From: Actinomycetes bacterium
GTDB taxonomy: Bacteria > Actinomycetota > Actinomycetes > Nanopelagicales > Nanopelagicaceae
DNA length: 64,000 nt
Direction of reading: 5' to 3'
NCBI GenBank assembly: GCA_025360085.1
Contig: JANYCW010000014.1
Span: forward strand, 28,357-92,356
Shown here: positions 1-42,252 of the stretch, in pieces
Numbering within the stretch: position 1 is the first letter of the stretch
Layout of the letters: each line of letters begins with the position of its first letter
Program-made: the position numbers and the translations under genes
Notes under the pieces: model-generated
The model's database searches: none
The model's input: the letters and a program-made list of their open reading frames with translations, nothing else
What the model was told of the DNA's origin: nothing

Positions 1-1
1 A

Positions 2-250
2 GCCGTCGGCTCTACCCTTCGCGCCGCACGTACTTCGCAAGGTCGTACTTTGCGTGATGTAGCTCGCGCTGCCCGAGTGTCCCTTGGCTATTTATCTGAG
101 GTCGAACGCGGACAGAAGGAGGCCTCTTCTGAACTTCTCAATGCAATCTGTGTAGCCCTTGGTCTCTCACTTTCAGGTGTATTTAGCGATGTATCAATCG
201 AACTAGCAAGCCATGAAGGCGTAACTCTTACTGTCGTCGATGCCGCTTAA
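2..250 (+). CDS. clgR: XRE-family HTH transcriptional regulator, ClgR-like (5' end outside window)
   Basis: Frame is open from position 2 ([46 protein letters not shown]), the typical actinobacterial ClgR HTH; DUF3046 lies nearby. Confidence 0.8.
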
Positions 251-764
251 TAAGTACGCACCGCAAGTACTTACACATCGGCGCACAGAAAGTTCGATTT
301 TAGCGGCAACAAAGCATCTGATTGCCACGGTAGGACTTACAAAGATGACAATGATTGAGATTGCCGATTCTTCCGAAGTCTCGCGCGCTACCTTATACAA
401 CCATTTTCGAGATAAAGAGAGTGTCATCCTTGCTCTGTGTCAGAGCGAATGTGGACGTCTCATAAATATCGCGCGCAGTGCTCTTCATGCAACTGATGCG
501 TTAGAACTTCTATCGATTCAAGTGTCTACGGATAGCGCACTTGCACATTTGCGAACTCATGATCCTGCGCACTTGTCAATCGGACTAAGTGCAATACATA
601 ACAGACTCTGGACGGACTTAACCGACACCCTTTGCGAAATTACAGGCAGTCGGGTTCTTTCTGACGTGTCGTTACGTTGGTTAATAGGACAAGTTTTCAA
701 TCCATTGACTCCGCAGGATTCGCGTTTGCAAGCAGAACTACTTATTTCTCGTGCGCATTTCTGA
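240..764 (+). CDS. TetR/AcrR-family transcriptional regulator
   Basis: N-terminal TetR HTH motif [24 protein letters not shown]. Confidence 0.85.
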
Positions 765-945
765 TTTACGTGAGCGCCTAACGCTCTCATTCGGTGTAGG
801 TTCACACTTTCCCGTCGATATTGCAATCTCTGAACTTGGAAGCCGAAGTGTTAATGAAGCGCTGGCTGATGGTTATGAAGCTGATGAAGTATGGAAAGCG
901 GTATGTAAAGCCCACCCTCATGAAACAGAAAAATATAGGTATTGA
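751..945 (+). CDS. DUF3046 family protein
   Basis: 64 aa with LGSRSVNEALADGYEADEVWKAVC, matching the small actinobacterial protein usually found just upstream of recA. Confidence 0.8.
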   Translation: MRISDLRERLTLSFGVGSHFPVDIAISELGSRSVNEALADGYEADEVWKAVCKAHPHETEKYRY

Positions 946-1739
946 AATTGAAACTTGCTACGGCACTAACGCAAACAGACTCTCAAAATCCACCGCTAGT
1001 TTTAATTCATGGTTTGGGTTCTGCCGCTACGGTCTTTAAATTAATTGTTCCGCAGCTTTCGAAATCCTTTCGGGTTATCACGGTTGATTTACCCGGACAC
1101 GGTGATAGCCCATTGATAGAGAATGTGGAGATGGACCCGAAGTCATTAGGAAGCGCTATCTTTGACGTAATAAGTAGTGAGTATGGGATCGATAAATTTC
1201 ATGTTGCAGGTAACTCGTTAGGGGGTTGGATTGCTTTAGAAATGGCGGCAAGCCAACCCGATCGAATATTGAGTTTAACGGGTTTGGCACCGGCTGGATT
1301 ATGGCTTGAACCTGCACTTGGACGTACGTTATCTGAGGCAAGGGCACATTACTTAGCGGCAGTATTAAAACCTTTTATCAAACCTGCGCTCAGGTTTCAC
1401 ATATTACGCAAGATTGGCTTTTCGTTAGTTAGCCCCAAATGGCAAGAGTTAAGTTATGAATCGTGTTTAGATGCAAGTATGGCGATGGCCAATTGCTTGG
1501 GCTATTTTTCGGCTTGGGATGGCATGTTGAATCGGCGTTTTGATTCCCATGTACCTCCGAGTGTTCCAGTAACAATTCTCTTCGGCGATAGCGATAACAC
1601 GTTGCCTCGCAATGGCTCACAAGAGCGCACTTTGGCACCTTCTCATAGCACATGGCAGATTATCGATAACTGTGGCCACGCACCGATGTGGGATCACCCA
1701 GATCTGATTGTCGGAATCATCAAAGATACTTCACAGTAA
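942..1739 (+). CDS. Alpha/beta fold hydrolase
   Basis: HGLG oxyanion motif, GNSLGG nucleophile elbow and C-terminal GHAPMWD catalytic His. Confidence 0.85.
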   Translation: MKLKLATALTQTDSQNPPLVLIHGLGSAATVFKLIVPQLSKSFRVITVDLPGHGDSPLIENVEMDPKSLGSAIFDVISSEYGIDKFHVAGNSLGGWIALEMAASQPDRILSLTGLAPAGLWLEPALGRTLSEARAHYLAAVLKPFIKPALRFHILRKIGFSLVSPKWQELSYESCLDASMAMANCLGYFSAWDGMLNRRFDSHVPPSVPVTILFGDSDNTLPRNGSQERTLAPSHSTWQIIDNCGHAPMWDHPDLIVGIIKDTSQ

Positions 1740-1854
1740 AATTGCCTGATATTTAATCAATAATTTTTATCGCCTGTAGTTTTCAAGGAAGATGAGTTTC
1801 ATTGCGCTAGTCTATGACCTTCCACATTTCAATTGACCCTGATTAGGTGCACTT

Positions 1855-3207
1855 ATGAATTCAAAAGAAGTTTTAGCCGATGTGAAAGAAAATAACACCC
1901 GTTTGATTCGATTTCTATATTGTGATCCATCTGGAGTTATCCGTGGGAAAACGGTTCATGCATCTCAGTTTGAATCCAAATTAGAAGAGGGTGTTGGCCT
2001 CACTCGAGCACAGAATGCCGTCAACCTCTTTGAAAATTTAATTCAAGTCGATGGCATGGAGCCAGTCGGTGAAGTTCGCATCATTCCAGATCCAGCAACT
2101 TTTACGCAGTTGCCTTGGCTCAATCGCACCGCCAGTATGCTAAGTGATTTACGCGAACAAGATGGCTCTGAGTGGGGCGGATGTCCTCGAACGGTCTTAA
2201 AGCATGCCATCGAAACCGCACATCAAGCTGGAATTCAAATTTTTGCCGCCTTTGAGAGTGAATTCTACCTTGCCGAAGATATAGGTGATGGGTTAGTCCC
2301 ATGGGCTAACGGCCCTGTCTATTCAAGTGCTGGAATGGATCGTGCCAGCGCTGTCATTGATGACATGGTAGATAATTTAACCGACCAAGGTTTTATCGTT
2401 GAGCAAGCGATAAATGAATATGGTCCAGGTCAACAAGAAATTGTTTTACGCTATACGGATGCACTTGCAGCGGCCGATCAACATTTGAAATTTCGAGATA
2501 CGATTCGAGGCACAGCTGAAGTTGAACATGGTTTAACTGCTTCATTTGCACCCAAACCATTTGTAGATGGAATTGGTTCAGGTGCTCATTTGCATTTCTC
2601 GCTTTGGTCACTCGATGGAAAAGTGAATTTGCTGCATAGCCCGCAATCTCAACGTGAAATATCTGATCTCGGCAAGAGTTTTGTAGCTGGACTTTTAGAG
2701 CACATGCATGCGGTGGTTGCGCTGACATGCCCCTCCTTTGTCTCTTATCAACGCCTAAAGCCGCATTCGTGGGCCGGCTCGACGATTTCTTGGGGATATG
2801 ACAATCGAGAGTGTGCAGTGCGCGTTGCAAGTCCATTTACGGGCAGAGAGTCTGAGTCAATTAATTTAGAACTGAAAGTTTCAGATGGCACGAGCAACCC
2901 GTATCTTGCACTCACCGCAGTTATTCTCGCTGGATTAGATGGAATTAAACGTAATTTAACGCCGCCCAAACCTGCCCATCGCGACCCACTCTTACTTACT
3001 ACGCAAGAGCAGGTGGATTGCAATATACGCCCACTTCCTGCAACTCAACTTGATGCCCTCGCTGCTTTGGAAAACGATGAGGTTCTGAGTCAAGGTTTAG
3101 GTGAGTTAATGCTGCGGTGCATCATGGCCACTCGAAAGGCCGAATCCGCAAGAGCCGTTCAAGAGGGCGATGATTGGGCTCGGCTGGCAACCTTTTCGGT
3201 CTTCTGA
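1855..3207 (+). CDS. Glutamine synthetase-like gamma-glutamyl ligase (GlnA3/FluG C-terminal type)
   Basis: GS fold motifs FESEFY, EYGPGQQE, GSGAHLH, NRECAVRV and ELKVSDGTSNPY. The flap reads PHSWAG rather than PGYEAP, so it is not a canonical GS. Confidence 0.85.
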   Translation: MNSKEVLADVKENNTRLIRFLYCDPSGVIRGKTVHASQFESKLEEGVGLTRAQNAVNLFENLIQVDGMEPVGEVRIIPDPATFTQLPWLNRTASMLSDLREQDGSEWGGCPRTVLKHAIETAHQAGIQIFAAFESEFYLAEDIGDGLVPWANGPVYSSAGMDRASAVIDDMVDNLTDQGFIVEQAINEYGPGQQEIVLRYTDALAAADQHLKFRDTIRGTAEVEHGLTASFAPKPFVDGIGSGAHLHFSLWSLDGKVNLLHSPQSQREISDLGKSFVAGLLEHMHAVVALTCPSFVSYQRLKPHSWAGSTISWGYDNRECAVRVASPFTGRESESINLELKVSDGTSNPYLALTAVILAGLDGIKRNLTPPKPAHRDPLLLTTQEQVDCNIRPLPATQLDALAALENDEVLSQGLGELMLRCIMATRKAESARAVQEGDDWARLATFSVF

Positions 3208-3326
3208 AATTTTTTTAAGTTATTTTGTAAAAAATAGCGAACCATCCTTCAATTCCTGGTAACTGGCTGAGATACTAACCCGGTCAGAGATTGGAAATAA
3301 TTATTAGCTAGGGGGAGGGTAGATCT

Positions 3327-4778
3327 ATGACCGATGTAGGAGTTAAGGGTTTAATCAAGAATCTCAATATTTGGGAGGCAATTGGAATTTCAGTTGCGCT
3401 CATGGCCCCATCAATGGCGGCAAATATCAATCCGCAAGGCACCGCAACGACCGTTGGTCGCGCCGTTCCCGTTGCATTTGCTCTTGCAACAATCGGCGTT
3501 TTACTTGTTGCTTATGGGTTTGTACGGTTAAGTCAGAACTTTCATCATGCAGGAAGCGTCTATGGCTTCGTCGGTGCAACAACTGGGCCACGAAGTGGTG
3601 TCGTTGCAGGTTGGGGATTAATCGGCACGTATATTTTTTACGGCTGTGTTACTTCAATGGCCGCTGGAATTTTCGGTGCAAAATTCCTAGACGAAATCGG
3701 TCTTTGGAAAAATCAATCACCATCTGCAGGATTTTTAGTCGGCGCAATCGCTCTCGTTTTAGCGTACTTTCTCGCAATCGTCCCAGCTCGAAACGGAACT
3801 CGCTTATTGCTAATCGTCGAAGCGATTACCGTAGTCCTGATTCTAATAACTGCATTTGTAGTTCTCGGAAAGCTCATTGGCGGTACGGCCCCAAATGGCC
3901 TTGGTGTGGATATGTCGGTATTTTCAATTCCATCTGGAACTGGCGGATCAACAGTTTTCCTTGGTGTCGTATTTGGGTTCTTATCTTTTGCCGGATTTGA
4001 AGCCGCTGCAACCCTTGGAGAGGAAGCCCGTAACCCTCGAAAAGATATTCCCCGTGCAATTCTAGGTACAGCAATCTTCGGTGGAGTCTATTTTGTCTTT
4101 GTTACCGCCGTTGAAATGATGGGATTTGGAACCAACGAAGCCGGTGTCAAATCATTTATTGCTTCGGGTTCGCTCATGGGAGATTTAGGTACTCAATATG
4201 TTGGCTCTTGGATTGGCACAATAATTACTTTAGGTGCGGCAGTTAGCGCTTTTGGCTGTTGTTTAGCCTGTATCGTCGGAAGTTCGCGGATGCTCTTTGC
4301 CATGGGCCGTGACAGTGGAAACGCCCGTTTAGCTTCTATTTCAAGTAAGAATGGCGTTCCTACAATGGCTACGCGAATGGTTACTGGAGCTGCCGCCATC
4401 ATTATCGCACTCTGGGCAGTAATTGGTAACGCAAAACCCTTCGATATCTTTGTTGGAAGTGGTGTTATTGGCACACTTATTTTGGTGGCAGTGTATGTAT
4501 TTGCAACCATTGGTGCAATTAAATTCCTCTTCCTCTCTGGAACTAAACGTGTAGCCACGTGGGAGATTATTATTCCAATCGTGGGCTTAGTAGTTCTAAT
4601 TTATACGCTCTACCGAAATGTAATCCCATTTCCAACTAGCGGACCTTCTCGAATATATCCGATTGTGAGCGCATTGTGGCTTGCTGTCGGAATAATTACG
4701 GTATTTGCGCGCCCAGCTTTCACTAAAAAACTGGGTACCCGACTACTTGCTGATGAAAATCTATCTGCTTCACGTTAA
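3327..4778 (+). CDS. APC-family amino acid/amine permease
   Basis: About 12 hydrophobic segments; SFAGFEAAATLGEEARNP and SRMLFAMGRD APC signatures; SD GGGAGG upstream. Confidence 0.9.
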   Translation: MTDVGVKGLIKNLNIWEAIGISVALMAPSMAANINPQGTATTVGRAVPVAFALATIGVLLVAYGFVRLSQNFHHAGSVYGFVGATTGPRSGVVAGWGLIGTYIFYGCVTSMAAGIFGAKFLDEIGLWKNQSPSAGFLVGAIALVLAYFLAIVPARNGTRLLLIVEAITVVLILITAFVVLGKLIGGTAPNGLGVDMSVFSIPSGTGGSTVFLGVVFGFLSFAGFEAAATLGEEARNPRKDIPRAILGTAIFGGVYFVFVTAVEMMGFGTNEAGVKSFIASGSLMGDLGTQYVGSWIGTIITLGAAVSAFGCCLACIVGSSRMLFAMGRDSGNARLASISSKNGVPTMATRMVTGAAAIIIALWAVIGNAKPFDIFVGSGVIGTLILVAVYVFATIGAIKFLFLSGTKRVATWEIIIPIVGLVVLIYTLYRNVIPFPTSGPSRIYPIVSALWLAVGIITVFARPAFTKKLGTRLLADENLSASR

Positions 4779-4819
4779 TTAATCGATATCAATAACAACT
4801 GCGGGAGATGAAATAAAAG

Positions 4820-5515
4820 ATGCTAGAAAATGTCAAAGTTGTAGATTTAACGATTCCACTTGGGACGGACATCATTATGTGGCCGGGGGCACCTTCTCCA
4901 GAAATGGAGACGCTCGTAACGGTTTCGCACGATGGTTACTTTGCCAGACGAGTATCGTTCTTTGAACATACGGGTACGCATTTTGATGCACCATGCCATT
5001 TCATTGAAGGAACTGCAACGACTGACACAATTTCAGTCGATTCTTTGGTTCGACCCGCAGTTGTTATAGATATCTCTTCTGCCATTGGAAACGATCCCGA
5101 TGCCGTCTTAACTTTGGAGCAGGTGGAGGATTTTGAAAGAACACATGGTGAGATTCCATTTAACGCCGCTATTTTATTGCGGACAGGTTGGGAGGATTTC
5201 AATACCGATTCATTGAAATATTGCGGTCCCGATGGCGATCTGCATTTCCCGGGATTTGGCGTTGATGCGGCGAGATTTTTAGTCGAAGAACGCCACGCTG
5301 CGGGTCTTGGAATCGACACTTTAGGAATCGATCCGGGAAATCGCCCAGATTTTCCGGTGCACTCGCAGATATCGCACCCTAAAGGTCTGTGGCATTTAGA
5401 GAATTTACAGAACTTAAAACTTCTCCCACCATTGGGTGCGTGGATTATCGTTGGAGTTCTCCCGCTCGTGGGAGGCTCAGGAAGTCCCGCTCGAGTTATT
5501 GCGCTTCTACCTTAA
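4820..5515 (+). CDS. Cyclase-family metal-dependent hydrolase (kynurenine formamidase KynB-like)
   Basis: HTGTHFDAPCH (HxGTHxDxPxH), GIDTLGID, HLENL and GGSGSPAR motifs. Confidence 0.88.
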   Translation: MLENVKVVDLTIPLGTDIIMWPGAPSPEMETLVTVSHDGYFARRVSFFEHTGTHFDAPCHFIEGTATTDTISVDSLVRPAVVIDISSAIGNDPDAVLTLEQVEDFERTHGEIPFNAAILLRTGWEDFNTDSLKYCGPDGDLHFPGFGVDAARFLVEERHAAGLGIDTLGIDPGNRPDFPVHSQISHPKGLWHLENLQNLKLLPPLGAWIIVGVLPLVGGSGSPARVIALLP

Positions 5516-5516
5516 T

Positions 5517-6106
5517 ATGCCCGAAAAATGGGCCTTTATAGCCACCTGTGACTTAGTTGCTCACGTTCGAGGTCGAAGTGCGCCCTACCAACAATTAATT
5601 GAACGGGAATCTGGAGTTGGTTGGGTACCGGCTGATTTAGCAATGAGTGCATTTGGCACAGTAACTAGCCCTAACGCCTTTGGAGTCCTGGGGGGATTTG
5701 CATCGCAAAAGAGAATCGAGAGGCGTTGCTCCGAATTTGTCCACAAATAAAAATTGCCAACCACAATCAATCCAAGAGTTTCAATATTGAATATCGGGCA
5801 GCCGATGCCACGGCAAATCCTTGGATAGTTTTCGGAAGTCTTATTCATGCGATGCGAACCGGTCTAGAATCAAATCTTATTTTAGATCACGTGATAGATT
5901 CCGAAATTGAAGGAGTTGAAGGAGTGAGGCCACTTCCCGTGAGCCTGGAACACGCACTTTCATTTCTTGTAAAGGACGTGATGGTACAAAGTTGGTTTGA
6001 CCCGATTCTTCTTTCAACATTTTTGGGCATTCGCGCCAGCGAGGCCCACGAGTTGATTGATTTATCCCCAGAAGAAAGGTGTACCCGATATGTCAACGTC
6101 TACTGA
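5517..6106 (+). pseudogene. Glutamine synthetase-like gene with a large internal deletion and frameshift
   Basis: ATG 5517 gives the GS-like N-terminus (FIATCDLVAHVRGRS...GVGWVPADL). A different frame from about 5675 gives the GS C-terminus (LWSPGGICIAKENREALLRICP...FNIEYRAADATANPW...PLPVSLEHAL). The central catalytic region is absent. Confidence 0.85.
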
Positions 6107-7241
6107 AGAACTTCGCGAACATATAGAAAATATCAAACTTACTGACCATCATGTTCATGGTGTTGTACGCGATAATCCCAGTGCAGAGCAGTTTGCAAAC
6201 ATGATTACCGAATCTGATCGAACACCTAAATCTGTTGAAGCGGCATTGGATACTCAAGTCGGATTCGCCGTACGTCGCTGGTGCGCGCCGGTGCTCGGCC
6301 TACCTGTACATGCCTCTGCCACTGAGTATTTTCACCGCAGAATTGATTTGGGTAGTGAGCGCGTAAATCAGCTGCTTTTGAATAAAACTGGCATTTCGCA
6401 CTACTTGATTGAGACGGGCTTTCGGGGCGATGAGATCTATGGAGTCGAGGGAATGCGCGAAATTACAGGTGCTAAAGTAAGTGAAGTCATCAGGTTAGAG
6501 GTTTTAGCCCAGATTCATGCCGAGAGTAGCGGCACTACTGTTGAGAATTTTAGCAAAAGTTTTGAGGCGATTTTAAGGCAAAGGGCGGTTAATGCCGTCG
6601 GTTTGAAGAGTATTGCAGCGTATCGAATTGGTCTAGATTTTGATCCAACAAGACCAAATGAGTTTGAACTTCGCGCGGCATTAGATGCGTGGTTTAAGTC
6701 CATTCATAATGGAGGCGATCCTCGGCTAAATAACCCGATAATTATTCGTCATGTAATTTGGCAAGGCATAGATTTAGGTTTGCCAATTCAGTTTCATATT
6801 GGTTACGGTGATCCAGATTTAAATCTTCATAAATGTGATCCTCTTTTAATGACTGAACTAATTCGGATGACCGAAAAATTAAATGTCCCTATTATGCTTT
6901 TACATAACTATCCATATCAGAGAAATGCGGGCTATTTGGCTCAGATGTTTACAAATGTTTTCATCGATGTTGGATTAGCCATTAATTATGTCGGTGCTAG
7001 GGCGCCAGCGGTAATCGCCGAATCATTAGAGCTTGCCCCGTTTAGTAAAATCCTTTTTTCATCCGATGCTTGGGGTCTACCTGAATTGACCTATTTGGGT
7101 GCTCGACTATTTAGAAATGGTTTATTTGAAACTCTGGCGCAATGGGTTGAAAAAGGTGATTGGTCATTAAATGATGCTAAACACGTGAGTGATTCAATTG
7201 GTTTTATGAACGCAAACCGCGCCTATTCGTTAGAGGCCTAA
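6090..7241 (+). CDS. Amidohydrolase family protein (FluG N-terminal / Amidohydro_2 type)
   Basis: DHHVHG metal site, GLKSIAAYRIGLD, QFHIGYGDPD, LLHNYPY and FSSDAWGLPE. ATG 6090 is preferred over 6057. Confidence 0.88.
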   Translation: MSTSTEELREHIENIKLTDHHVHGVVRDNPSAEQFANMITESDRTPKSVEAALDTQVGFAVRRWCAPVLGLPVHASATEYFHRRIDLGSERVNQLLLNKTGISHYLIETGFRGDEIYGVEGMREITGAKVSEVIRLEVLAQIHAESSGTTVENFSKSFEAILRQRAVNAVGLKSIAAYRIGLDFDPTRPNEFELRAALDAWFKSIHNGGDPRLNNPIIIRHVIWQGIDLGLPIQFHIGYGDPDLNLHKCDPLLMTELIRMTEKLNVPIMLLHNYPYQRNAGYLAQMFTNVFIDVGLAINYVGARAPAVIAESLELAPFSKILFSSDAWGLPELTYLGARLFRNGLFETLAQWVEKGDWSLNDAKHVSDSIGFMNANRAYSLEA

Positions 7242-8432
7242 AGTAGATCGTGCATCGACAAAGGCATCAACGCACGTCCTAATCTCTTCAAAAGTATGGC
7301 TTGCACTTAATTGGATTCTTATTCGTGCTTTCCCCAGTGGAACCACGGGATATGAAAAGGCAACGGCGAAAATTCCGCGTTCAAAAAGGGCCTTTGCCAT
7401 GGCCACTGCGGTGTGTTCGTCACGAAACATCACGGGAACGATTGGATGCTCACCAGGCAAAAGTTCAAAGCCATTTTCGAGCATTAGTGCACGAAATAAA
7501 GCGGCATTTGCTAGTGTTTTTTTGCCTCGTTCTGGGTGTGCCTTAATGACATCAAGGGCGGCAATGCTGCCTGCGACAACTGATGGCGGCACCGAGTTTG
7601 AAAATAGATAAGGGCGAGCTTTTTGACGGAGCATTGCGATTATTTCGGGGTGGCGTGAGCTGATGTAACCACCTGATGCCCCGCCCAAAGCTTTTCCTAA
7701 AGTGCCAGAGAGAATATCCACGCGATTGACCACGTCAAAATACTGTGGTGTGCCCGCGCCCGTTGCTCCGATAAATCCCGTTGCATGCGAATCATCGACC
7801 ATGACTAACGCCCCGTATTTTTCGGCCAAATCACATATTCCCTTAAGAGGCGCGAAGGATCCATCCATGGAAAAAACTCCATCGGTGATGATTAAAATAC
7901 TCTTGGATCCAGATGCGGCTTTGAGTTGAACCTCCAAATCCGCTAAATCTCGGTTTTGATAGCGTAAGCGTTTAGCTTTGCATAATCTGATGCCATCAAT
8001 TATTGAGGCGTGGTTGAGTGAATCAGAGATAATTGCATCGTTTTCATCGAAGAGGGCCTCAAAGAGACCCCCATTGGCATCAAAGCACGAAGGAAAAAGT
8101 ATTGTTGCCGAAGTTGCCAAAAATTCAGTGAGTTTTTTTTCTAAGAGAAGATGTTGATTGTGGGTACCGGCAATAAATCGAACGCTCGCCATTCCAAATC
8201 CATAGGTATCTAAAGCTGATTTTGCTGCTGTAATAATTTCTTCGTTATTTGCCAAGCCGAGATAGTTATTAGAGCAGAAATTTAAAAGTTCTTTGCCTGA
8301 TGCCTGAATTTCCACGGCTTGAGATCCGGACAGGGGGCGCTCTTGCTTTAACAGCCCCGCATCTTCTAGAACAACTAATTTATCCCGAAGCTCGTTGATA
8401 AAATCACCTATGGAAGAAATTTCTAGCTCCAA
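7230..8432 (-). CDS. kbl: Glycine C-acetyltransferase (2-amino-3-ketobutyrate CoA ligase)
   Basis: [36 protein letters not shown] (PLP Lys) and [12 protein letters not shown]; adjacent to tdh. Confidence 0.93.
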
Positions 8433-9448
8433 TCCAAAATTATTTTTCCGCAGTTTCCAGATCTTGCGAGTTCAAAGGCAGATTCCCATTCATTGGCGGC
8501 AAATCTATGCGTAATCACACTGGAAATATCTAAGCCTTTTTGAACCATTGAGTTCATCGAATACCAGGTTTCATACATTTCGCGGCCATAGATTCCTTTA
8601 ATAGTAATCATATGTGTGACGACCTTAGCCCAGTCAATAGATATGGGATCCTTCGGTAAACCAAGAGCTGCGATTCGCGCACCATGTCCCACGTTTGCAA
8701 GGATCATAGGTATGGCAGATTGGTGCCCGCTCATCTCAAATGCAACATCAAATCCCTCTTTCATGCCAAGGCTTTTCATTGTTGTTGAAATCTCGTGAGA
8801 AGAGATATTAATTGCTGCATCGACTCCCATGTCGCGCGCTAACTTTAAGCGGTACTCATTGACATCGGTGATGACGATAAATCGTGCACCGACAAATCGT
8901 GCGATTGCCGCCGACATTAATCCGATGGGTCCAGCTCCTGTAATCAAAACATCTTCACCAACAACGGGAAAACTTAAAGCCGTGTGTACTGCATTGCCTA
9001 ATGGATCAAAGATTGCTGCAAGATCTAAATCAATATCAGGTGGGTGTGACCACACATTGCCTTCGGGAATTACAACAAACTCCGCAAAAGCACCATTGCG
9101 ATTAACACCGACACCTAATGTGTTCATACATAAATGACGGCGGCCCGCGCGGCAGTTACGACAAAGACCGCAGACGATATGGCCTTCTCCTGAAACGACA
9201 TCTCCAACTTTTATCGTTGTAACATCGCCTCCGATTTCACTGACTCGGCCGACGAACTCATGGCCAGGAATAAATGGAGGATTCAAATTTTGATCTGCCC
9301 AAGAATCCCAACTTTCAATATGGAGATCTGTTCCACATATTCCGGTTTTTAGCACACGGATTTTGACCTCTCGGGCACCGACATTGGGTTCTGGCAGTTC
9401 AAGGAGCTCTAAGCCAGGTGCACGGTGTGCCTTATACAGAGCTCTCAT
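8423..9448 (-). CDS. tdh: L-threonine 3-dehydrogenase
   Basis: Zn-ADH motifs [33 protein letters not shown] and [12 protein letters not shown]. Confidence 0.95.
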
Positions 9449-9520
9449 GCCAACCTCTCGCTATACCTAGGTCAACACCCTACTCGTAGAGCGAGGTTTT
9501 TTGGGATGAGAACGAACTAG

Positions 9521-11752
9521 CTAGAAAAGCACCCTCTTCATCTCCGCTGATTTTGCAATAGCAACAAAGACTGGAATCTCATCTACTGGTGTATCTACAT
9601 GAATCCATTGTTTGCCAGTGAACTCTTCATCGCTCCAAAGATTCACCCACGTACCTTCTGGCAAGTACACCTCCATACCTGTTGTATGGGGTTGGATGAC
9701 TGGGGCAATAAGCAAACTGGTTCCGAGCATATATTGATATGGCGCTTTCCAAATTTCTTCATCATCGAAGTAGTCAAAAAATAGACCAGCCATGAGGGGC
9801 CGACCGGTCTCAATCGCTTTTTTTCCTTCCACGGAAAGGTAAGGAATTAGGCGCTTTCGCAGGGATGCAAAACTGCGAAAGATTGAAATTACCTCTGGGC
9901 TGCCATTTTGTTCGGCGATATTCCATGGAGTGCGATCATTGGAGGGAATCTGATGGTGATTAAACTCAGAATGAAACTGCATAATTGGACAGAATGTCGC
10001 CATAGCGCTTGCGCGTAGATACAAATCTGTTGATGGGAGGTCCCCGCTAAATCCAGCAATATCCCAGCCCCAAAAAAAGATTCCACTTGCCGAGGCGGTT
10101 ATTCCTGCTCTGATGGATGCACGATATGCATCCCACGTAGAATCCTCATCCCCTGCCCAAAACGTTGGATATGAGCTACTTCCTGCAAAACCTGCACGTG
10201 AAAAGGTAATTGCCTCACTCTGCGTGGAGCTGATTAATTCATGGAAAGTCTGTGCATAAGCAACCGGGAATAGATTATTTTTTTCGATTCCCAATGCACC
10301 ATCGAGATACCTAAGATCAGAACCCCATGCGTGTTCTCCACCATCAGTTTTAAAACCATCAATACACATCTCTGTTAGCAGATATTTGTGTAGGTCGCCC
10401 CACCACTTCCTAACTTTGGAATCGGTAAGATCTGGTAAGAGACCATCTCTAAACCAGAAACCGGGCACGCGATAAGGTTGGTCTGATGAGTCTTTAATGA
10501 CAAGATTGTTTTCGATTGCATAGTTCCATATCGCACGGATTTGGGAGCCAGGCTCACCCTGATCTTTAATAACTGGAATTTGCCAGAGGATACATTTGCT
10601 TCCTTGGGCATGAATGTCATCGATCATTTTCTGAGGGTTAGGCCAGGCACCATCACGTGGATATGTGATTTGTGTGCTGTGTAATCCAATCGAGCCGTCG
10701 GTGGGAGTAAACACGGCATCTCTGAATACGGCGAATGTGGATTCATCAGACCATGCCTCTAAAACAATTACTCCGAGATCAATTCCATGGGCCAGACTCA
10801 ATGCAATTTCTTCCTCAACGCGCGCTTGGGTATTCCACTCGTTGCTGCTACCCCAGATACTGTAAATCCAGTTCGGAGGAGCCTTGGGCAGTTCAAACTC
10901 GGAGATATATTGCTTAAGAATTGAGACGTAATCACCTCCATAAATCTTTATTTCGCACTCTGACTGCCCCGGTGCGATGTCAATCTCGATAATAAGACGA
11001 TCGCTTTTTGAAACACCCACGTCGAAGCGAGTTGGAGTTGATGTCTTTACATAAAAACCGTAGTTACTGCCAATAACCATTCCGAAGGGAGCTGGGAGAT
11101 AAGTTCTGTGCCCTTGCCCCTTGTACTCTTCATACACAACGGCATCGACAAACTCTCCACGTTGATCAATGGAGTTAAAGCGCTCGCCGAATCCGACAAC
11201 GTGGTCGTTCACGGTCAAAGGTAGTGAGGCACGGAGAGAAAAGATTCGCCCAGTTGAATCCCGTAGGATTTCAATATCACTACATTGAACATTTACATCA
11301 AAGCCGGAGGTAACTTCGAGAAAGCCATTTTCATCTGGAGCCCACGCTAGGGCAGAAAATGAATATGGAGTAGTGCGCTCTTTACTATCGCTTTCGAACC
11401 AGTACGTGATCTCTTCGAAATTGAGAAGAATTGGTAGATCGATTTCCCACTGGAGTTCTCCTGGATATTCACCTGATCGTGCGGCCGCATCGGCGAGGTG
11501 TGTATCTGCACCAATATATTTTGCGGTCTGACCATAAGGACCATGGTCATCAGATCGGGCATTGCCGAGCAGATTCAATTCATAAATCTCTGATTTCAAT
11601 TCTCCTCGCACATATAGAAAGACTTTTTTTGTCAACTCATCGCTGCGAGCCCGTACTTTCCATGCCTGACCAGAGATTGGATATATGGGAATGCGTTGAT
11701 CTGGCTCATATCGATATGGGTGGCCAATTCCAATTGGAACGTGGTTTAACAT
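9521..11752 (-). CDS. Glycoside hydrolase family 31, probable 1,3-alpha-isomaltosidase (cycloalternan-degrading) type
   Basis: GH31 nucleophile region DGFKTDGGEH, acid/base WAGDEDSTW, WGWDIAGF and MQFHSE. No signal peptide. Family assignment is secure; substrate is inferred. Confidence 0.88.
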   Translation of the reverse strand: MLNHVPIGIGHPYRYEPDQRIPIYPISGQAWKVRARSDELTKKVFLYVRGELKSEIYELNLLGNARSDDHGPYGQTAKYIGADTHLADAAARSGEYPGELQWEIDLPILLNFEEITYWFESDSKERTTPYSFSALAWAPDENGFLEVTSGFDVNVQCSDIEILRDSTGRIFSLRASLPLTVNDHVVGFGERFNSIDQRGEFVDAVVYEEYKGQGHRTYLPAPFGMVIGSNYGFYVKTSTPTRFDVGVSKSDRLIIEIDIAPGQSECEIKIYGGDYVSILKQYISEFELPKAPPNWIYSIWGSSNEWNTQARVEEEIALSLAHGIDLGVIVLEAWSDESTFAVFRDAVFTPTDGSIGLHSTQITYPRDGAWPNPQKMIDDIHAQGSKCILWQIPVIKDQGEPGSQIRAIWNYAIENNLVIKDSSDQPYRVPGFWFRDGLLPDLTDSKVRKWWGDLHKYLLTEMCIDGFKTDGGEHAWGSDLRYLDGALGIEKNNLFPVAYAQTFHELISSTQSEAITFSRAGFAGSSSYPTFWAGDEDSTWDAYRASIRAGITASASGIFFWGWDIAGFSGDLPSTDLYLRASAMATFCPIMQFHSEFNHHQIPSNDRTPWNIAEQNGSPEVISIFRSFASLRKRLIPYLSVEGKKAIETGRPLMAGLFFDYFDDEEIWKAPYQYMLGTSLLIAPVIQPHTTGMEVYLPEGTWVNLWSDEEFTGKQWIHVDTPVDEIPVFVAIAKSAEMKRVLF

Positions 11753-40475: not shown

Positions 40476-40550
40476 CCTCGTTGTAACACTTGGCGTTTTT
40501 TGCAACGTCCACGAAATGCCGACGAGCCTCATCTGTAACGCTTTTAAGAC
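40472..40550 (+). promoter_or_regulatory. GlnR-box-like elements upstream of amt-glnK-glnD
   Basis: GTAAC-n6-GTAAC (40472-40487), GCAAC-n6-GAAAT (40502-40517) and GTAAC-n6-AAGAC (40535-40550). Confidence 0.65.
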
Positions 40551-40612
40551 ATCTTTGCGCCTATCTCAAAGGCGAGGGTTCGTTATTCTATTATTCGAAA
40601 GACGGCTCACTT

Positions 40613-42252
<1,640 letters not shown>

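Follow-up and report, generated by a model that had tools for sequence, protein, structure and literature searches.

What pathway is encoded at positions 1855-7241 of a 64,000-nucleotide stretch of Nanopelagicaceae DNA (the window), where genes for glutamine synthetase (GS)-like ligases, a permease, and two hydrolases lie side by side? The original prediction described five co-oriented genes that import, glutamylate, and hydrolyze an amine or amide. The coordinates and the gene content hold, but the fourth gene, the second GS-like gene (GS2), is a pseudogene from which approximately 707 bp has been deleted. Where two ligases had been expected, the window genome has, as judged from the sequence, one working ligase (GS1). 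With a little more confidence than doubt, we regard the block as a cassette of freshwater Nanopelagicaceae that is accessory, moves horizontally, serves catabolism or nitrogen scavenging, and combines import, hydrolysis, and gamma-glutamylation. The features of the block are as follows.

1855-3207, + strand: GS1, an intact GS-like gamma-glutamyl ligase of 450 residues (Gln-synt_N_2 + Gln-synt_C, 9.7e-91).
3208-3326, + strand: spacer of 119 bp between GS1 and the permease gene, with a candidate operator, GTAAC-n6-AGATAC, at 3259-3275.
3327-4778, + strand: APC-superfamily permease of 483 residues (AA_permease, 1.3e-29).
4820-5515, + strand: CYC, a cyclase-family metallohydrolase of 231 residues (PF04199, 2e-40).
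5517-5750, + strand: N-terminal remnant of the GS2 pseudogene (Gln-synt_N_2 fragment; ATG at 5517, TAA at 5748-5750).
5680-5701, + strand: deletion junction of GS2, 22 nt, aligning with both sides of the missing segment of approximately 707 bp.
5696-6106, + strand: C-terminal remnant of the GS2 pseudogene (Gln-synt_C positions 226-332 of 344; TGA at 6104-6106).
5436-5750 and 5726-6106, + strand: two short overlapping open reading frames, remnants of GS2 (a piece of the GS N-domain and a partial catalytic domain, respectively).
6090-7241, + strand: AH2, a binuclear amidohydrolase of the 2QPX/FluG-N type, 383 residues (Amidohydro_2; 2QPX match, 3.8e-45).

We compared the GS2 remnants with intact orthologues of 427-431 residues, which are located between the CYC and AH2 genes in related loci. 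Relative to three of these loci (L009, L155, and L176), the window lacks approximately 706-707 bp, corresponding to about positions 1-225 of Gln-synt_C. The deletion measures 707 bp against L176 and 706 bp against L155 and L009, and the reading frame is shifted either way. L176 is the closest intact locus, with 92% identity in CYC and 86% at the nucleotide level across the block. In the blastn comparison with L176, window segments 1701-5701 and 5680-5901 mapped 707 bp apart and shared the 22 nt at 5680-5701. The breakpoints in L176 are the imperfect direct repeats CTGGGGGATTTGC and CTGGAGGAATCTGC, which indicates slippage or illegitimate recombination. The surviving parts of GS2 amount to approximately 59 N-terminal and 136 C-terminal codons in two different frames. 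The N-terminal remnant aligns with codons 1-59 of the three intact copies, and the homology stops at approximately 5695. The C-terminal remnant (ICIAKENRE...RYVNVY) lies in the other frame without a proper start; in translation (ICIAKENREALLRICPQ...RYVNVY) it corresponds to the C-terminal end of both intact GS2 and Pseudomonas PA5508.

Both remnants are otherwise open, and their non-synonymous divergence is not above that between intact copies, which suggests that the loss of GS2 is recent. The ratios of non-synonymous to synonymous divergence (dN/dS) of the remnants against L176 were 0.15 and 0.07; these values come from few codons and are not decisive, and they give no sign of neutral decay yet. 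Against L155 and L009, dS was saturated. An independent contig with an identical AH2 ends 109 bp upstream of AH2, inside the remnant, and is uninformative on the deletion. The three downstream genes are packed tightly: the CYC-GS2 junction reads TAA-T-ATG, and the GS2 stop and AH2 start overlap by 17 nt (6090-6106), an overlap that is also present in the intact loci.

GS1 retains its two metal sites and its ATP and glutamate ligands (ESEF, NEY..QQEI, AHLH, YQRL, DNRE..VRV, and LEL). Relative to true GS, its clade carries the substitutions D50->R, flap E327->W, and R359->K; in the alignment, LTRA of GS1 faces FDGS of true GS and PHSWAG faces PGYEAP. The Trp that the original prediction noted in place of the ammonium-site flap Glu is thus present, but it is not special to this ligase, being common to the entire GS1/GS2/PA5508 group. 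The score of GS1 against the GlnA model TIGR00653 was 242 bits, below the cut-off of 429. Because both ammonium-site acids are replaced and the GlnA cut-off is not reached, GS1 is predicted not to be a true glutamine synthetase. The loss of these acids together with the retention of the catalytic ligands is the pattern expected of an amine ligase. Besides GS1, four GS-family genes of the window genome are intact, including one that belongs to a GlnA4-like cluster within the window; the GlnA1-like and C33 paralogues keep both ammonium-site residues.

In regards to GS2, the orthologues scored 145-159 bits against TIGR00653 (cut-off 429), and both ammonium-site acids are again replaced; GS2 is likewise predicted not to be a true glutamine synthetase. 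Intact GS2 is a clear relative of Pseudomonas PA5508 (PauA7). The GS2 of L009 matched PA5508 (4HPP) at 1e-86 (295 bits, approximately 40% identity, residues 8-431 to 12-443), and the orthologues share with PA5508 the PH(R/H)WSA flap and the C-terminal ...C..Y..VY. In the tree, the GS2+PA5508 clade received a support of 93/88, or 100/99 with L039 included, and the GS1 clade was separate from it. PA5508 and Streptomyces GlnA3 (SCO6962) stand side by side in a review table, and the link between GS2 and GlnA3 rests on that table (PMC9397018). It is the broken GS2, and not the gene at 1855-3207, that lies closest to PA5508/GlnA3 and is coupled to AH2 in translation.

The cyclase-family protein is the sole PF04199 gene of the genome (138.7 bits against a cut-off of 23.1) and has the metal motif HxGTHxDxPxH in the form EHTGTHFDAPCH. 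Its best PDB match was 8F9X (4.5e-37), a Ruegeria cyclase-phosphotriesterase (PMC12135135), and the isatin hydrolases 5NMP, 5NNA, and 4J0N matched equally well (approximately 1e-35). An assignment as KynB was rejected, with 47 bits against TIGR03035 (cut-off 223) and only 1e-10 against KynB in the PDB. The earlier description as KynB-like was thus abandoned, and CYC is predicted to be nearer to the isatin hydrolases and the Ruegeria enzyme. Plasmid-borne homologues from Rhodococcus, Azospirillum, and Thermus (approximately 40% identity) lie in neighbourhoods without GS-like or AH2 genes and are uninformative.

AH2 most likely starts at ATG 6090, behind a GAAAGG ribosome-binding site, rather than at TTG 6057. 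Its sole PDB relative is 2QPX (3.8e-45; 3.4e-77 with a profile), the closest structural homologue of the FluG N-terminus (PMC6478659), which bears out the resemblance to the FluG N-domain that had been noted earlier. The genes for 2QPX and PA5508 jointly complement fluG (PMC6478659). All seven AH2 positions (HxH, carbamyl-Lys, Tyr, His, His, and Asp; roles taken from PMC6478659) align to 2QPX and are invariant in 11 diverse homologues. AH2 is classed as a FluG-N/2QPX/SCO6961-type protein. The permease reached no equivalog model at its cut-off; it shares 25% identity with PuuP of E. coli and 24% with a PA5510-like permease.

The genes of the block co-occur in many other genomes as a conserved unit; a lack of such co-occurrence, which the original prediction had named as refuting it, thus does not apply. 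AH2 was present in 21 of the 251 Nanopelagicaceae species genomes, in 8 of the 18 genera, and in none of the other sampled species genomes of the window's genus; the cassette was also found on many freshwater metagenome contigs. More than 1,200 CYC homologues (E<=1e-30) and more than 3,500 AH2 homologues (E<=1e-20) were obtained, and the best 120 of each were metagenome or metagenome-assembled genome (MAG) records, several of them labelled freshwater or Nanopelagicaceae. The cassette proteins are 57-92% identical across independent contigs and species genomes.

We determined the layouts by tblastn across the fetched loci. The order GS1-APC-CYC-GS2-AH2 was found in the window, L009, L010, L012, L043, and L044, and the order APC-CYC-GS2-AH2-GS1 in six loci. 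GS2 is lacking in L042, L045, and L046, which have the order APC-CYC-AH2-GS1 with a CYC-AH2 gap of 47-114 bp. In L039 and L047 the layout is divergent: a GS2-like gene of 35% identity is encoded on the opposite strand. The constant core is GS1, the permease, CYC, and AH2; the identity of GS1 is 65-80% in every cassette, and an APC permease was found in every one. The loci without GS2 fall in two places on the GS1 tree, which indicates that GS2 was lost at least 2 times besides the loss in the window. The flanking genes vary between loci, and other nutrient-uptake operons (tdh-kbl and a sugar-uptake operon) are among the neighbours. In L042 (genome G181), the cassette follows right after an apparent tRNA 3' end (GGTTCGAGCCCGACGGGGCCCAC), a typical island insertion point; this end lies approximately 150-190 nt upstream of the permease start, on the reverse strand near 9760-9800.

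Several known systems resemble parts of the cassette. In glnA3-SCO6961-SCO6960 of Streptomyces coelicolor and Rv1878-Rv1879 of Mycobacterium tuberculosis, the ligase gene is directly upstream of that for an Amidohydro_2 protein, as GS2 is upstream of AH2. The genes glnA3 and SCO6961 (Amidohydro_2) are co-induced by polyamines (PMC5403932), and GlnA3 enzymes glutamylate polyamines (PMC5403932, PMC11841054). The glnA3-SCO6961 layout also occurs in a large actinobacterial genome, as a GS2-AH2 pair whose proteins share 50% and 49% identity with those of the cassette. The S. coelicolor operon differs in having no cyclase-family hydrolase, second ligase, or permease. PA5506-PA5510 of Pseudomonas aeruginosa follows the same logic as the cassette, with a hydrolase on either side of the ligase and an APC permease in addition. 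However, its hydrolases belong to the isochorismatase and FGase families, which are unrelated to the cyclase and Amidohydro_2 families, it has one ligase and an RpiR regulator, and the PA5508-type gene is intact in Pseudomonas and a pseudogene in the window. PA5508 is reported to prefer bulky amines (PMC6478659). The corresponding locus of Pseudomonas paraeruginosa (L055, 8456-13486) comprises an RpiR regulator, an isochorismatase-family hydrolase, PA5508, an FGase-family hydrolase, and an APC permease. No AH2 or CYC homologues were found within 10 kb of PA5508 in 80 Pseudomonas-type loci.

Fungal FluG, plant NodGS, and CsTSI consist of the same two domain families, a 2QPX-type amidohydrolase and a GSI-like ligase, the likeness to FluG being drawn through 2QPX. 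Their domain order equals the gene order AH2-GS1 in the layouts APC-CYC-GS2-AH2-GS1 and APC-CYC-AH2-GS1 and in L146. These proteins are fused, whereas the cassette has separate genes together with a permease, a cyclase hydrolase, and a second ligase; no polypeptide with both AH2 and GSI-like domains was found, the genes being separate in all loci seen. An AH2-GS1 fusion in L146 and L147 was ruled out, as each has two genes in different reading frames. In L147 (genome G346), the AH2 homologue beside the GS1-like gene (8674-9817) was matched as two overlapping tblastn pieces, 8674-9438 and 9308-9817, which may point to a frameshift, either in a pseudogene or through a sequencing error. The E. 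coli Puu pathway shares with the cassette an APC importer and an ATP-dependent gamma-glutamyl ligase whose flap residue is not Glu (Tyr in PuuA, Trp in the cassette). It differs in its redox enzymes PuuB and PuuC, which the cassette lacks, and in its hydrolase PuuD, whose family is other than those of the cassette hydrolases.

Related gene sets also occur outside the cassette, where the trio GS1+GS2+AH2 recurs. On other freshwater contigs, AH2 homologues 57-59% identical to that of the window were found in two further layouts: L170 (1515-6886) has Liv-type ABC importer-GATase_4-GS2-AH2-Aminotran_3-M14/AstE, and L172 (5542-12387) has GS1-GATase_4-GS2-AH2-Pro_racemase-P450. Other actinobacterial families likewise have ligases with 50-56% identity to GS1 beside AH2 homologues; among the GS1-type neighbourhoods elsewhere, one case has the FluG-like order AH2-GS1, and others have SDR dehydrogenases and class II amidotransferases. 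A recurring arrangement places a GS2-type ligase between one upstream and one downstream hydrolase, with a cyclase, class II amidotransferase, or isochorismatase protein in the upstream slot. Because AH2 co-occurs with a dedicated amidotransferase-type hydrolase in the sister clusters, AH2 may not be the deglutamylase, contrary to the role predicted for SCO6961 (PMC5403932). Our literature searches returned no description of the gene combination of the cassette, in agreement with the view that it is not a described pathway. The gene arrangement is new; the parts and the logic, namely gamma-glutamylation and the split-FluG theme, are already known.

In the scavenging route that we favour, the APC permease would import an amine- or amide-bearing compound, CYC and AH2 would each cleave a C-N (amide-type) bond, and GS1 would use ATP to couple the amine so exposed with the glutamate gamma-carboxyl. 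An intact GS2 of the PA5508/GlnA3 type would perform the same ligation as GS1. The cassette of the window, its GS2 probably destroyed recently by a repeat-mediated deletion, would run on GS1 alone, like the natural four-gene variants. What the sequences show is which genes are present, that they are conserved as a unit, the families to which they belong, the state of the active sites, and the pseudogene; the import/glutamylate/hydrolyse scheme of the original prediction, with the direction of transport, the order of the steps, the gamma-glutamylation of an amine, and the substrate, is inferred. Several observations weigh against the route, the main weakness being that the cassette has no oxidoreductase or aminotransferase. 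With no redox or transaminase gene, glutamylation followed by hydrolysis would be futile unless another bond is cut or later steps are encoded elsewhere. Membership of CYC in PF04199 apart, no family model was matched at its curated cut-off by GS1, the permease, or CYC. Assignment to polyamines is weak, since GS1 shares only 30% identity with E. coli PuuA, and the permease shares 25% with PuuP. The Rfam scan of 1-9000 (E<=0.1) gave no matches and no riboswitch, and the promoter and terminator scan gave sites no more numerous than in shuffled sequence and no clear regulator site.

A polyamine or diamine is nevertheless the leading, if tentative, guess for the substrate. In a dedicated polyamine or diamine cassette, which is possible though rather unlikely, GS1 and GS2 would be short-/long-chain gamma-glutamylpolyamine synthetases like Streptomyces GlnA2/GlnA3, the permease would be a PuuP-like importer, AH2 and/or CYC would act as a PuuD-like deglutamylase, and the oxidation would be encoded elsewhere. 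The best NCBIfam match of GS1 is indeed gamma-glutamylputrescine synthetase (NF045547 GGputSyn, 425 bits), but its cut-off of 650 is not reached, and GS1 is no closer to E. coli PuuA than are paralogues of the same genome, another of which scores higher. GS2 is of the PA5508/PauA7 type, which is tabulated beside SCO6962 (PMC9397018), and SCO6961 is induced by polyamines (PMC5403932); PA5508 itself, however, is reported to prefer bulky monoamines and not to be polyamine-induced (PMC6478659). Other AH2-GS2 clusters hold class III aminotransferase and AstE-like genes, and a polyamine role would account for the dispensability of one of the two ligases. The cyclase family, by contrast, has no known role in polyamine metabolism, and PuuB and PuuC equivalents are lacking within the cassette. 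To a reading of the cassette as a free-standing bacterial FluG/NodGS system we give a smaller chance. Driven by ATP, such a system would carry nitrogen from an imported and otherwise inert amide, lactam, or ureide into the pool of glutamate and glutamine; the gamma-glutamyl group would act either as a handle that is later removed or as the acceptor of nitrogen, the metallohydrolases would cut other bonds, and CYC would fill the slot of the class II amidotransferase or isochorismatase of the sister clusters.

An aromatic amide or lactam route, modelled on the aniline/naphthylamine systems and on PA5508, is a little more doubtful still. CYC would open or deacylate an aryl amide (isatin-, oxindole-, or N-formyl-arylamine-like), and the arylamine would then be gamma-glutamylated. 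This would suit the match of CYC to the isatin hydrolases, whose products are arylamines, the position of CYC directly upstream of GS2, and the grouping of the GS2 clade with PA5508, which reportedly prefers bulky aromatic amines (PMC6478659). Against it, there are no dioxygenase or ring-cleavage genes nearby, GS2 is dispensable whereas CYC is always kept, and GS1 matched NpaA1 (8wwu) at only 4e-45, no better than it matched ordinary glutamine synthetases. In addition, acI genomes are streamlined and are not known for the catabolism of aromatics. We consider it quite improbable that the cassette is biosynthetic or detoxifying, making a gamma-glutamyl amide (a theanine-like solute, a signal, or a detoxified amine) that the permease would export, or for which it would import only the precursor. 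In its favour, FluG-type proteins have links to signalling, the GSI-like protein CsTSI of tea makes theanine (PMC9909507), GlnA3 has been discussed as a polyamine detoxifier (PMC11841054), and a short conjugation route would be in keeping with the missing redox genes. Two hydrolases would, however, be hard to explain in a conjugation pathway, such APC permeases are mostly importers, and the patchy, island-like spread beside nutrient-uptake operons (tdh-kbl, sugar uptake) looks like substrate scavenging.

The acI/Nanopelagicaceae dominate freshwater bacterioplankton, and the range of dissolved organic nitrogen compounds open to them depends largely on their accessory genes. With hundreds of close homologues on metagenome/MAG contigs, several labelled freshwater, the cassette behaves as a transferable unit. 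It joins a FluG-N-type amidohydrolase with a PA5508/GlnA3-type ligase, families whose physiological substrates are uncertain and which include the fungal developmental regulator FluG. The variant series of two ligases, one ligase, and a fresh pseudogene, together with the sister clusters with swapped hydrolases, provides a comparative framework. The interest of the cassette lies in the ecological abundance of its hosts and in the chance of finding substrates for the FluG-type enzyme pair. If the FluG/NodGS reading were true, the substrate of the cassette would point to the long-sought FluG-type substrate class and to an unrecognised source of dissolved organic nitrogen for a bacterial group that is among the most abundant in fresh water.

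Upstream, the block is flanked by an alpha/beta hydrolase gene, which was matched in 4 of the 6 complete genomes of the same genus (43-50% identity). Downstream, the kbl-tdh pair (threonine to glycine + acetyl-CoA; 7230-9448, - strand) converges on AH2 with a 12-nt overlap of the ends. No match to kbl was found in the 6 complete genomes, which suggests that the island is larger than the cassette and that the accessory region at this end of the window extends beyond it.

In regards to control signals, the candidate operator in the GS1-APC spacer (GTAAC-TGGCTG-AGATAC, 3259-3275) is kept only in the closest relatives, L176 and L155, and a GlnR-type operator upstream of the permease is consequently not claimed. 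In the gene order APC-CYC-GS2-AH2-GS1, the same position is the operon start. Elsewhere in the window, the leader of amtB (approximately 40490-40620; amtB, 40646-41878) contains the boxes GTAAC-CTCGTT-GTAAC, GCAAC-GTCCAC-GAAAT, and GTAAC-GCTTTT-AAGAC. The GTAAC-n6 boxes before amtB and the similar candidate before the cassette permease may reflect GlnR-type nitrogen control. In L034, L037, L038, L040, and L045, a C(G/T)CACAAT(A/T)GCGCCAG-like element is located approximately 40-60 nt upstream of the permease start, and this element of the permease-first cassettes may be a promoter or operator.

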